From a virus (lineage: Duplodnaviria; Caudoviricetes): a DNA stretch of 64,000 nucleotides. Positions 7,193 through 52,651 of the stretch are shown in pieces (position 1 is the first letter of the stretch; every line of letters begins with the position of its first letter). The stretch is taken from IMG/VR virus record IMGVR_UViG_3300027874_000010, positions 1 to 64,000 of that record. One strand, 5' to 3'. The notes beneath the pieces were generated by a model. That model saw nothing but the letters and a program-made list of their open reading frames with translations, made no database searches and was not told the origin of the DNA. The translations under genes were made by a program, and so were the position numbers.

Positions 7193-7403
7193 TGTGGTTC
7201 GCGATCACCTTCGCCATCGTGCAGTCGGGATCCGGGTCGTAGTGCGGGATCAGCCCGTCGCGCCGAGCTTCATCTACCCAGGCTTGAGCGGTGCCTTCGA
7301 GGTACTTGGCGCGCGCGGCGTGCAGGACTTCATCCTTCTCGGCGTGGACGTGCCCGGCGTCCACGATGTAGCGCTCGCCGCCTAGCTCGACGCGGGCGCT
7401 CAT
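7134..7403 (-). CDS. hypothetical protein (candidate immunity/partner)
   Basis: MSARVELGGERY...; ATGA-coupled to 7400-9754. Confidence 0.6.
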   Translation of the reverse strand: MSARVELGGERYIVDAGHVHAEKDEVLHAARAKYLEGTAQAWVDEARRDGLIPHYDPDPDCTMAKVIANHIKGRYSCAPAPPAEPGQRH

Positions 7404-9754
7404 GTCATCTCCGACAGCGGCGTCGGGAAGATCTGGCGACCACCCTCGCGCGCCTCGGCCAGTAGCTGTTGGGTGAAGTCGAAGCTCTGCGGGTCGTCGC
7501 GGGCGAACTTCACCGGGTCGTCGTGCATGAGTTGCAGCGCCATCGACAGGAACTCGTGGCTGGTCGGCGCGTTGGGACCGTAGTCCTTGCCCATGTACGG
7601 GTCCGCGAACTGGTCGCGGTGCGTCACCTCGTTGTCGTTGTAGTTGCTGCCAGTCACCGAGCGTAACGACACGGTTGGCTCGCCCTGGGTGCGGCTCTCG
7701 ATGTGCGCCTGGATGCGCGGCCCCATGCCCGGGATGTTGTCTTCGAGCCAGTGGCCCATCTCGTGGACCACCGTGCTGTCGGAGTTGTCGCGCGGGTGCA
7801 TGGTGACCATGCCCGTGCCGCTGCTGTGGTAGCTGCGCCCGCTGTCGAACCACTGGTCGTCGGGTGCCATGAACTTGATGCGCGGCTGAAGGAATCCCTG
7901 GGTCACCTGGCCGGTCATCTCGTTGATGCGCTGCACGCCCTGGGTCCAGTTCTTGGGCACCTCGGTGGCTGAGATCGGCGTCAGGTCGCCGCGATAACCG
8001 GTTATCGCCAGGTTGCCTGGGCCGGTCGGGGAGTTGACGTACTTGGCCCGAAGCTCGGCCGTCAGGTTGTCGCGCGCGGCGTCCACCTCGTGCTTGGTCG
8101 CCCAAAAGTTGTTTTGGGTCACATCCATGTTGTGCATCTGGCGGTCGAGTTCGGTCTTGGCGTCTTCGTACTCCTTGCCGTACGTGACCTGATCGTCCTC
8201 TAGCTGCTTGATGACCTCGGGCGAGGCCCCGAGCCGCTTGGCGTCCTCGATGCTTTTCGGCAGCGACCCCACCATGTCGCGCATGTCGCTCCAGTTCTGC
8301 GCGGCGTGCTGGTAGTCCTCGCCCACCTGATCGTATTGCCGCTGCGCCTCGGTCATGCGTGCCTTGAGTGACGCCGTGCGTCGGTCGGCTTCCGCGATCA
8401 TCGCCTCGCGCCTCGCGCGCATCCGCTCGGGGCTGGTGTCGGCACGGACGCCGCCGGTCGGCCCGACCACGGGCTTCGCCGCGCCCTCCTTGGGCTTGCC
8501 CCAGGAACTGACGAACCCCGCGCCGCCCTCGTCGGTGAAGCGACCCGTGTCAGCGTCGTGGTACGGGTTGAACTTCTCCTCGACGGTCTTGGCCTGGTCG
8601 CCGGGCTTCCAGTCTTCGGGTGCGCCCTGCTCGGCCCACTCGATGATGTCCTGCCAGATCTCCCACGCCTGCTCCTCGGTCATGTCGTCCGGCGGCTCGT
8701 CGGTCATCTTCATCATCCGTGCGGCGATGGCCTCGGGCGAGCGGTTGGTGAGTGCGCCGCCCTCGCGCCGCCACTGCTCCCACACCACGGCCTGGAACGC
8801 CGCAGGGTTCATGTTGCGCGCCGACGCTGCGCTGCGCACGCGGTCCGCCGCCCATCCGTAGCCGCCGACTGTCGTCGCGCTCGGGCCGCGCCCGATCTTG
8901 CGGCCCTGGATCAGCGTGTTGACGGCCTTGAGGTTGGCTTCGGTGTCCTCGTGCAGGTTCAGCATGGCGCGCCCCATGTGCGTATCGACGGTCACGTCGA
9001 AGGCCGACTCGGGGTGGCTCAGGTTGTTGTTGAAGGATCGGATCTTGTTGGCGTTGAACACCTCGTCCGGGTCTTCGCCGCGCAGCGCTCGGATGGCGTT
9101 CTCGGCGTTGTTGCCGATGAACGGGTACGGCTTGGAGTGCGGCGTGATCTCGCGGATCTGCTCAGGCGTCATGCCCGGGTGCGCGCGGTCTACCTGCACC
9201 ATCGCGCGCGCAGCTTCGAGGTTGGGCAGTCGCCCGTTCTTGAGGTTCCAGTTGGTCAGCGGGCTGGTCGCCGCGACCGCATCCGTGAAGCGCTGGCGGT
9301 CCACCCCGAGTTGGTCGGCCCACTGGCCGATCTCGTTGTGCTTATCGACGTACCAGTTGGCGTCTTCGGCGTGGCCCTGCTCGATGGCTCGGTCGTACAG
9401 ATCGAGCATGCGCTGCTCCGCGAGCTTGGCGGGCAGATGCGGCGGATCAACAGCCCTGGCGCGGACACCCGTCAGGTGCGCCGTGTCCAGGCCGGTCCGC
9501 GAGGACTTCCACGTCGAGAGGTGGGTGACCGGCGTGCTGACGCCACCGCCGCCACCAGATACGAATCTGCCGCCCTCACCCCTGGGGTGGAGCGACTCAT
9601 CCCACTCTTTGAGTTCGTGCAGGAGCAGGGCGCGTTCCATGTCGAGCAACGCCGCGCGCACATCACGCGGAGCAACCACGACACGACCGTGGGCTACGTC
9701 GAGGCTGACCTCGATCTCACGGAGCTTGGCCTGAAGCGCGTCCCACTCAAGCAC
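7400..9754 (-). CDS. two-module cargo protein: DUF7178/HhH-like domain plus coiled coil and zincin metallopeptidase
   Basis: KEWDESLHPRGEGGRF and KFNPYHDADTGRF motifs; AATSPLTNW, VTVDTHM, QAVVWEQWR; HEMGHWLE...EFLSM. Confidence 0.75.
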   Translation of the reverse strand: MLEWDALQAKLREIEVSLDVAHGRVVVAPRDVRAALLDMERALLLHELKEWDESLHPRGEGGRFVSGGGGGVSTPVTHLSTWKSSRTGLDTAHLTGVRARAVDPPHLPAKLAEQRMLDLYDRAIEQGHAEDANWYVDKHNEIGQWADQLGVDRQRFTDAVAATSPLTNWNLKNGRLPNLEAARAMVQVDRAHPGMTPEQIREITPHSKPYPFIGNNAENAIRALRGEDPDEVFNANKIRSFNNNLSHPESAFDVTVDTHMGRAMLNLHEDTEANLKAVNTLIQGRKIGRGPSATTVGGYGWAADRVRSAASARNMNPAAFQAVVWEQWRREGGALTNRSPEAIAARMMKMTDEPPDDMTEEQAWEIWQDIIEWAEQGAPEDWKPGDQAKTVEEKFNPYHDADTGRFTDEGGAGFVSSWGKPKEGAAKPVVGPTGGVRADTSPERMRARREAMIAEADRRTASLKARMTEAQRQYDQVGEDYQHAAQNWSDMRDMVGSLPKSIEDAKRLGASPEVIKQLEDDQVTYGKEYEDAKTELDRQMHNMDVTQNNFWATKHEVDAARDNLTAELRAKYVNSPTGPGNLAITGYRGDLTPISATEVPKNWTQGVQRINEMTGQVTQGFLQPRIKFMAPDDQWFDSGRSYHSSGTGMVTMHPRDNSDSTVVHEMGHWLEDNIPGMGPRIQAHIESRTQGEPTVSLRSVTGSNYNDNEVTHRDQFADPYMGKDYGPNAPTSHEFLSMALQLMHDDPVKFARDDPQSFDFTQQLLAEAREGGRQIFPTPLSEMT
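7992..8007. repeat. 16-bp palindrome copy 2
   Basis: CGATAACCGGTTATCG inside CDS. Confidence 0.9.
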
Positions 9755-51833: not shown

Positions 51834-52651
51834 GCGCTCAGGCCCTTGGCCTTGAGGTACGCGGCCATCACCTGGCGACCCTGGGAAGTCGGGTCAGTGT
51901 CCATCGTCATGCCCGTTGGTCCGCCGTGCTCCTTCCAGAACGCCGCGCCGCCGGGCATCTTCATCAGGTTGCTGAGCGTGCCCGCGCCCTTGTACTGGGC
52001 CGGCCAGGTGGGGCGGAAGCCGACCGGAGCGTCGAAGCCGATGCGCGCCCAGGTGTAGTAGCCGTTTTCCTCGGGGTGGAACTCCTTGGAGCCGACGCCG
52101 GTGAGTTGGACCTTGGGCAGGCCAGCCTGGTGCGCTGCCTCGACCGCCCGCGCCATGACCTGCACGCCCTTGCCGGATCCGCGCGCCTCGGGCTTCAGGT
52201 AGATCTGTTCGTAGTGCAGGTACGGGCCGTTCGGCGCACCGTAGGTGCCGTCGCCGTTGTAGATCATGGCGACGGCCTGGTCTTCGATGTCGGGGTGCTC
52301 CGCGACGATGGCTACGCCTGGACCGTGCATCTGGTCATCCCAGTTGACGACCTTGATCTTGGCCCCGTTCGGAGCACCGACCAGTCCCGCGATCTGGTGG
52401 TCCGAGAGATCCCTACCCAGGAGCTTCTGCACGCGCGCGTGCACATCCTTGGCGACTTCGAGCGGACCGCTGCTGCCACCAGCAGTCCAGCGACCACCCT
52501 CATCTCGCTCCTCGGTTTCCCACGCTGCCTTGCGGTTTTGATCCGGCCGAAATAACAAACGCCGGGTAGGGACAATCTCCCCTACCTCGGCGCTAACGAC
52601 CCGCCGCAGGGTCGCCTCCATGTCCAGCAGTGCGGCTCTTGGCTCAGCCAT
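51830..52651 (-). CDS. GNAT acetyltransferase cargo protein
   Basis: IYLKPEARGSGKG (acetyl-CoA loop), NGYYTWARIGF; KAAWETEERDEGGRW header. Confidence 0.75.
   Translation of the reverse strand: MAEPRAALLDMEATLRRVVSAEVGEIVPTRRLLFRPDQNRKAAWETEERDEGGRWTAGGSSGPLEVAKDVHARVQKLLGRDLSDHQIAGLVGAPNGAKIKVVNWDDQMHGPGVAIVAEHPDIEDQAVAMIYNGDGTYGAPNGPYLHYEQIYLKPEARGSGKGVQVMARAVEAAHQAGLPKVQLTGVGSKEFHPEENGYYTWARIGFDAPVGFRPTWPAQYKGAGTLSNLMKMPGGAAFWKEHGGPTGMTMDTDPTSQGRQVMAAYLKAKGLSA

Follow-up and report, generated by a model that had tools for sequence, protein, structure and literature searches.

Head-protein selection and injection in tailed phages are known in detail for T4 and a few giant phages only. In T4 the internal proteins and Alt carry a capsid-targeting sequence that is removed by gp21 (PMC9958956; Mullaney and Black 1996), and in the giant phages SPN3US and phiKZ a single prohead protease processes numerous proteins inside the head, at a short consensus, before their ejection (PMC7411985, PMC10052503). 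Packaging, injection and proteolytic processing are predicted for the phage-type polyvalent proteins in passages of Iyer, Burroughs, Anand, de Souza and Aravind 2017 (PMC5512222), and passages of Jamet et al. 2017 (PMC5576092) present the MuF polymorphic toxins of temperate phages as a head-associated carrier with variable toxin modules. The element described here is a short peptide, hereafter the tag, that stands at the head of enzyme modules in five genes of a virus of the Caudoviricetes. The window analyzed is the first 64 kb (64,000 nucleotides) of the 74,412-bp virus record IMGVR_UViG_3300027874_000010 (G+C 65%).

The locus resembles the polyvalent proteins as treated in passages of PMC5512222 in its chains of unrelated conflict enzymes (ADP-ribosyltransferases (ARTs), zincin metallopeptidases (MPTases), 2H, ParB, kinases) fused to or lying beside portal or MuF. 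At least two unrelated effector domains occur per polypeptide, namely seven ARTs with two zincins, DUF7178 with a zincin, a ParB-like domain with a zincin, and a portal with 2H and a zeta kinase; all are phage-encoded and linked to head and virion genes. It differs in the conserved header of each module, with a flank that tracks head-protease type, whereas a term search of the same source returned no junction peptide, and in the seven ART paralogues held in one chain. Like the T4 capsid-targeting sequence, the tag is a short peptide ahead of cargo; T4 cargo enters the prohead core, is trimmed by the prohead protease and is injected, a course that is proposed for the present cargo. The T4 sequence has about 10 residues, is N-terminal, occurs once per protein and is restricted to T4-like phages, whereas the present tag recurs within the chain ahead of a Gly linker and keeps its sequence in many head lineages. 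The giant-phage sites are of about three residues ending in Glu, lack a long conserved core and were demonstrated by mass spectrometry, whereas the present sites are predicted from sequence. Unlike the MuF toxins, for which a term search of PMC5576092 found no description of a motif, the five tagged proteins gave no Pfam match to a MuF domain, and the MuF-like gene of the phage is separate and untagged. The tag system is a variant on the known theme of polyvalent proteins and capsid-targeting signals, and an unusually rich example of it.

The tag is present in 15 copies in five genes, all on the minus strand. The tagged proteins, whose genes are named below by their first coordinate where needed, are as follows.

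51830-52651, minus strand: GNAT protein, 273 aa, with an N-terminal leader, the tag and a GNAT acetyltransferase (PF00583); one tag
43155-51833, minus strand: polyprotein, 2892 aa, with nine tagged modules (six ARTs, zincin, ART, zincin)
41327-43186, minus strand: ParB-like/zincin protein, with tag, ParB-like module, tag and HExxH zincin; two tags
10038-13727, minus strand: portal fusion, 1229 aa, with HK97-family portal, Gly-rich linker, 2H phosphoesterase, two small repeats, tag and zeta-toxin-type kinase; one tag
7400-9754, minus strand: 784-aa product with leader, tag, DUF7178, variant tag, coiled coil and C-terminal HExxH zincin; two tags

The tags themselves, given from Lys to Trp for the first of the polyprotein, lie at these positions.

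52487-52531, minus strand: tag of the GNAT protein, 34.8 bits
51639-51686, minus strand: polyprotein tag 1
50676-50723, minus strand: polyprotein tag 2
49758-49805, minus strand: polyprotein tag 3
48705-48752, minus strand: polyprotein tag 4
47745-47792, minus strand: polyprotein tag 5
46815-46862, minus strand: polyprotein tag 6
45894-45941, minus strand: polyprotein tag 7, ahead of zincin 1
44904-44951, minus strand: polyprotein tag 8
43932-43979, minus strand: polyprotein tag 9, ahead of zincin 2
42863-42910, minus strand: first tag of the 41327 gene, W-D-E-S..H-P-R dialect, 37.3 bits
41924-41965, minus strand: second tag of the 41327 gene, 41.5 bits
10956-11006, minus strand: tag of the portal extension, ahead of the zeta kinase, 27.1 bits
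9563-9610, minus strand: first tag of the 7400 gene, 37.0 bits
8537-8575, minus strand: second tag of the 7400 gene, NPxHD..GRF variant, 4.7 bits

All 15 copies had been listed by the first-pass annotation, made from the letters of the sequence alone, and the Lys coordinates that it gave outside the polyprotein (9608, 8573, 42908, 41963, 11004 and 52529) agree with the present ones. With a profile built from 86 copies of other phages and 14 of the present phage, a six-frame search of the whole 74,412-bp genome scored 14 of the 15 copies at 27-51 bits and the next-best match at 8.7 bits. The remaining copy (7400 gene, about residue 400) belongs to the NPxHD..GRF dialect and reached 4.7 bits under the PRD profile. 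The same search found no copy in the other genes of the phage (tail, replication and others).

Apart from the one variant, the core matches that of the wider family, aromatic-D-P-x-Q-P-R-D-x-x-G-R-W/F, followed by T and a Gly-rich stretch. Three dialects are seen within this one phage: F/Y-D-P-x-Q-P-R-D..G-R-W, W-D-E-S-x-H-P-R..G-R/E-F and F-N-P-Y-H-D..G-R-F. A Lys had been claimed directly before every copy; it is present ahead of all 15, three residues before the Asp in 12 and with an offset of one or two residues in the other three (that of the portal, the second of 41327 and the NPxHD variant). Glu occupies P3 in 9 of the 15. The extended unit measures about 30 residues, with a Gly-rich run after most copies; the KT..W..L.xK spacer, ascribed earlier to many copies, is visible in about eight. 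Codon likeness was 0.58-0.67 among tags and 0.57-0.58 among module cores; tag codons are no more alike than core codons, which points to selection on the peptide and not on the DNA. A recent DNA repeat was considered as the origin of the tags and rejected, the synonymous sites in the tags not being homogenized relative to the module cores.

The modules behind the tags are seven putative ARTs with the R-S-ExE motifs intact, four zincins with HExxH, a zeta-type kinase, a GNAT, a ParB-like domain and DUF7178. Pfam matches were obtained for Zeta_toxin, GNAT and DUF7178 and, among the structural genes, for portal, S78 protease and HK97-type capsid protein; the zincin label rests on HExxH together with weak or PHROG matches, and the ParB-like label is weak (PHROG E 0.002). 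The seven ART modules have about 310 residues each, are 44-51% mutually identical and share YRG, SSW and ExE without exception (7/7); they matched no Pfam or PHROG family. The best 18 structural matches of an ART AlphaFold model were all R-S-E ARTs (ExoS, HopU1, Vis, iota, C3, ART2.2), with Z only 5.5-6.8 and Foldseek E >0.1. That the copies head self-contained enzyme modules, as first suggested, is borne out. In the AlphaFold2 model the predicted local distance difference test score is below 50 for both flanking tags and 70-90 for the ART core; judging from this model, the tag seems to be a short linear motif within a flexible linker, outside either domain.

The three multi-module proteins (polyprotein, 7400 and 41327) all end in an HExxH module, and the polyprotein holds another. 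The true start of the 41327 gene is probably an internal Met near residue 71. Residues about 480-1229 of the portal fusion comprise a Gly/Pro-rich linker, a 2H phosphoesterase (weakly Acb1-like), two tandem segments of about 55 residues (about 720-850), the tag and a zeta-toxin-type P-loop kinase; 2H with a zeta-type kinase is an uncommon enzyme pair for a portal fusion. Viral-contig relatives of the 7400 gene match its zincin domain only, and a close cultured relative of its N-terminus was not found.

The profile search across phages with a tally of the following domains, which had been put forward as a check, was run and gave varied effector domains downstream of the tag. A HMMER profile scan of 1.84 billion representative proteins returned 4,032 protein clusters at E<=0.001, a number that falls to 689 at E<=1e-10. 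When the strict core was searched as a back-translated DNA pattern, 92 viral contigs matched, as did 88 bacterial loci, most of them from Alphaproteobacteria and Actinomycetota. Across 90 distinct contexts the aromatic residue before the Asp was invariant, with Thr after the Trp and then the Gly-rich stretch. Up to 17 tags occurred in one protein (of 7,334 residues), two unrelated polyproteins of 2,900 residues had the tags as their sole shared sequence, and stand-alone single-module proteins also keep the tag. According to the Pfam tally, the tag is followed by ARTs (12), MuF, DUF7178, zeta toxin, PI3/4-kinase, ParB, zincins, TopoIB, nuclease toxins and GNAT, and is preceded in viral contigs by portals of five families (16/69), MuF and Acb1/2H. 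At least 40 residues lie downstream of 137 of the 142 last tags (median 225), and 13 first tags sit no more than 15 residues from the first Met (9-15 residues); with long sequence after the last tags and little before some first tags, the tag points forward.

The neighbors of tag genes in 28 randomly sampled bacterial loci encoded portal (21), terminase, S78, capsid and integrase, which upholds the proposed tie to head genes; conjugation families were absent from the 25 commonest neighbor families of these loci. In nearly all cases the tag lies within or next to a portal, MuF or terminase gene. No literature naming or describing the tag motif was found in searches that also covered polyvalent-protein processing and DUF2213. 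Judged by its sequence distribution, the tag is apparently a widespread and so far undescribed header label of proteins encoded with phage head genes. A profile search of the PDB gave a single match, a weak one (E 0.045), at residues 82-101 of chain Af in 9rku, from the baseplate core of phage 7-7-1, with Q-P-R-D..G-R-F and a Gly-rich stretch; if this match is real, the tag would also occur in a tail protein. A tblastn search of cultured phages with the 36-residue tag yielded nothing at E<=1, the query being too short.

The head module of the phage is encoded on the minus strand from 16200 down to 1283 and includes, besides the portal fusion and the 7400 gene, the following genes.

14725-16200, minus strand: large terminase
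6045-6833, minus strand: MuF-like head morphogenesis protein, a separate gene with no tag in the six-frame profile search
3760-5703, minus strand: prohead protease, 647 aa, with the S78 domain at residues 13-149, a long C-terminal region and a conserved C-terminal tail
2249-3733, minus strand: HK97-type major capsid protein, with an N-terminal scaffold (delta) domain of about 180 residues and a predicted cut after Lys180

An HK97-type head maturation set is thereby present, with PF04586 (S78) at 4e-16 and PF05065 from residue 190 of 494 in the capsid protein. E-x-K had been noted at the expected maturation points of capsid, portal and protease, and the strings do occur in all three. Aligned with the RcGTA capsid chain, the capsid protein has E-Q-K180|A181 at the K|A-L-N-S point, presumably the mature end as in the HK97 and RcGTA literature, with a spacing as for K103|S104 of HK97. 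The capsid point is in this way supported by homology, and the portal and protease points are guesses, one of them inside the S78 fold. The HK97 scaffold domain has 102 residues and is cleaved (PMC12749128). The present capsid protein has six E-x-K strings, every one of them within the scaffold domain (residues 1-180) and none in the mature part.

Of the 90 contexts, 48% have Lys at the two flank positions and 60% have K or R. Lys, which precedes every copy here, is enriched in the family at large without being required. Flank class is shared within a locus (35 of 46 pairs vs 12.7 expected) and within a protein (229 of 285 pairs vs 99 expected). K or R at most three residues before the aromatic was found in all 31 tags of S78-bearing loci vs 107 of 154 elsewhere (P=6e-5, kinship ignored). 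The two residues before the aromatic were basic in 22 of the 31 S78 tags and acidic-only in none, whereas of the 21 tags in Portal_3/DUF2213 loci without S78, 14 had an acidic-only pair and one a basic pair (P about 1e-6 to 1e-7 vs S78 loci, kinship ignored). At two loci with Mu/P23-45-type portals S78 was lacking and the flanks were non-basic; at one Portal_Mu locus S78_2 was present and the flanks were basic. The variation between K and R and in exact position among S78 loci argues for selection and against simple inheritance. The present phage is in the S78/basic class, and its Lys flank fits its own S78 protease, as had been supposed. The sole other locus with both a recognizable capsid site and tags (L194) has Lys in both; PF05065 was absent in five contigs whose tags have a non-basic flank, and capsid cut sites are not comparable there. 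One locus without S78 (L214, the context of P0023) has a tag-bearing ART near two Peptidase_S8 (subtilisin-like) genes and a faint Linocin_M18 (encapsulin-like) capsid gene.

A second peptide connects the protease with two of the cargo proteins. The pattern A-[AL]-L-x-[DE]-M-E, here AALxDME with a hydrophobic residue, occurs exactly three times in the six-frame genome.

52607-52636, minus strand: AALxDME at the N-terminus of the GNAT protein, residues 6-15
9626-9655, minus strand: AALxDME in the leader of the 7400 gene product, residues 34-44
3784-3816, minus strand: AALxDME in the C-terminal tail of the protease

In the portal extension and in the product of the 41327 gene, weaker versions stand before the tags. 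The protease tail is retained in relatives at 86% and 66% identity. The three DNA copies differ at synonymous sites, by which a recent DNA repeat as their origin was rejected. Alignment of protease tail and cargo leader scored 41, vs a maximum of 28 across the leaders of 15 other phages; with no excess in the 15 other loci, the likeness is not general and is seen in the present lineage only. The HK97 protease enters proheads by means of its C-terminal part, and Duda, Oh and Hendrix are said to have found in 2013 that a short terminal peptide, the C-terminal tail of this maturation protease, brings a protein into an HK97-type prohead. AALxDME is like that tail in lying in the tail of the present protease and unlike it in being found also on two cargo N-termini; such sharing of a protease tail with cargo proteins is not known to have been reported before. 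By this analogy AALxDME looks like a candidate loading peptide common to protease and cargo.

The reading preferred here, a serious possibility that stops somewhat short of probable, is that tag-headed precursors are built into the prohead and cut by the S78 protease in the Lys flank, after which the modules leave with the DNA. The course of events that we infer, from encapsidation through a cut at an exact bond and a reader of the core to ejection, would be the following. The tag, consisting of a lineage-specific flank, the invariant aromatic, D-P-x-Q-P-R-D-x-x-G-R-W/F and the Gly-rich linker, heads each effector module of polyvalent proteins, portal fusions and stand-alone cargo. The portal fusion would enter the prohead directly, and the other precursors may enter by their N-terminal leaders, among them two that are similar to the C-terminal tail of the protease. 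A cut would then be made by the S78 prohead protease in the Lys flank just before each tag, as the capsid protein is predicted to be cut after E-Q-K, and the single ART, zincin, kinase, GNAT, ParB-like and DUF7178 modules so freed would exit with the DNA. A wider form of this reading, which is possible but doubtful, makes the tag a universal address-and-cut label, with the core read by a conserved step of head assembly or exit, the flank tuned to each phage's own protease and, in the present phage, a separate leader derived from the protease tail for loading.

Several points weigh against release by the head protease. Lys is not general, being absent from about half of the tags. Many Portal_3 loci are related alphaproteobacterial prophages, and the statistics on flank and head type ignore phylogeny; "S78-negative" moreover means that no S78 was seen within at most 14 kb. 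E-x-K also occurs inside every ART module, and the site alone therefore cannot suffice. An invariant core of 12 residues far exceeds the need of a protease site and is the same across differing portals, capsids and proteases; since it is constant across phages with different head proteins and proteases, a reader other than the protease must exist. Zincins are enriched in multi-tag proteins (HExxH in 59 of the top 145 vs 8.5 expected, about seven-fold, and within the last 250 residues of 26) and close all three multi-module proteins here, and they could be the processing enzyme instead. Cutting is favored by the presence of one tag per junction, that of portal and effector included; an effector fused to the portal is loaded in any case and still has to be freed. 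Self-cleavage at Asp-Pro was rejected, as several copies carry Asp-Glu.

The core, long, invariant and disordered as befits a short linear binding motif, could instead serve as an address only, that is, as a docking peptide for loading, positioning or exit priming at which no cut is made, the polyproteins staying whole or being cut elsewhere. The tag is kept in stand-alone single-module proteins, where there is no junction for a protease to act on. Known address peptides include the tail of the HK97 protease and the cargo peptides of encapsulins. The T4 capsid-targeting sequence (PMC9958956) is another precedent. A loading signal is needed only once per protein, however, and the tag occurs once per module (nine times here, up to 17 elsewhere); portal fusions need no such signal and yet carry the tag between portal and effector, and this reading predicts no match of flank to protease type, save with a partner that differs by head type. 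An address without a cut is on balance unlikely. Less is to be said for the tag as the recognition site of the polyproteins' own MPTase-like zincin modules, cutting in the capsid or after injection, for which passages in Iyer et al. 2017 (PMC5512222) offer an argument in the form of autoprocessing by MPTase domains. The zincin enrichment and the HExxH modules that end the three multi-module proteins, with the second one in the polyprotein, speak for it, but 59% of multi-tag proteins have no HExxH, nor do the tagged portal and GNAT proteins here; most homologs of the 7400-gene zincin lack a tag in the same open reading frame, and the link of flank to head-protease type would go unexplained. Zincin autoprocessing is accordingly rated improbable.

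A reader that acts after injection, such as a conserved bacterial protease, chaperone or target, would account for the sharing of one core by phages whose head proteins are unrelated and whose hosts span Alphaproteobacteria, Actinomycetota and other phyla, which suggests a partner more conserved than the structural proteins. No candidate partner is at hand, the tag is confined to head-module genes with none in the other genes of the phage, and the flank varies with head type; such a reader is quite improbable. Unrelated polyproteins that share the tags alone, and the great variety of modules behind them, would also be expected of a passive flexible joint or a recombination seam for module shuffling that has no reader of its own. 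Against it stand twelve positions that hardly vary in thousands of clusters, tag codons whose synonymous sites are not homogenized vs the module cores, a fixed orientation and a flank that differs by head lineage, and a joint of this kind is very hard to credit.

The GNAT gene, the polyprotein and the ParB-like/zincin gene follow one another in this order, after a small Zn-ribbon gene, in a second minus-strand operon that runs from 52847 down to 25178. At its far end are a tail-fibre-like protein and a virion structural protein of 2305 aa (25498-32415, minus strand; phrog_8510), with a segment of 71% G+C at 26-28 kb. No tape-measure gene was recognized within the 64-kb window. The approximately 480 residues of the protease (3760-5703) that follow the S78 domain were assigned to no family; at residues about 190-600 a segment with the signature L-P-H-H..D-G-S occurs twice, and there is a strongly acidic/basic low-complexity stretch. 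Close relatives of the protease were found in three short contigs only. No close cultured relative of the phage was found, portal identity being below 30%.

The interpretation given by the first-pass annotation is partly supported, in that the tag truly heads cargo modules linked to the head and carries a flank suited to the head protease; cutting, loading and injection are inferred. A searchable tag that heads thousands of ART, kinase, nuclease, peptidase and anti-defense-like modules near head genes would allow candidates for injected effectors to be listed directly for every phage or prophage. From the covariation of flank and protease type comes a hypothesis that can be tested by mutation, namely that the head protease releases the modules. 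The present phage is an extreme case, with 15 tagged modules and seven diverged but, by motif, catalytically intact ARTs in one chain, and is a good test bed. If the tag is indeed a universal label, sequence alone would be enough to predict, for any tailed phage, the whole injected payload and the protease specificity.

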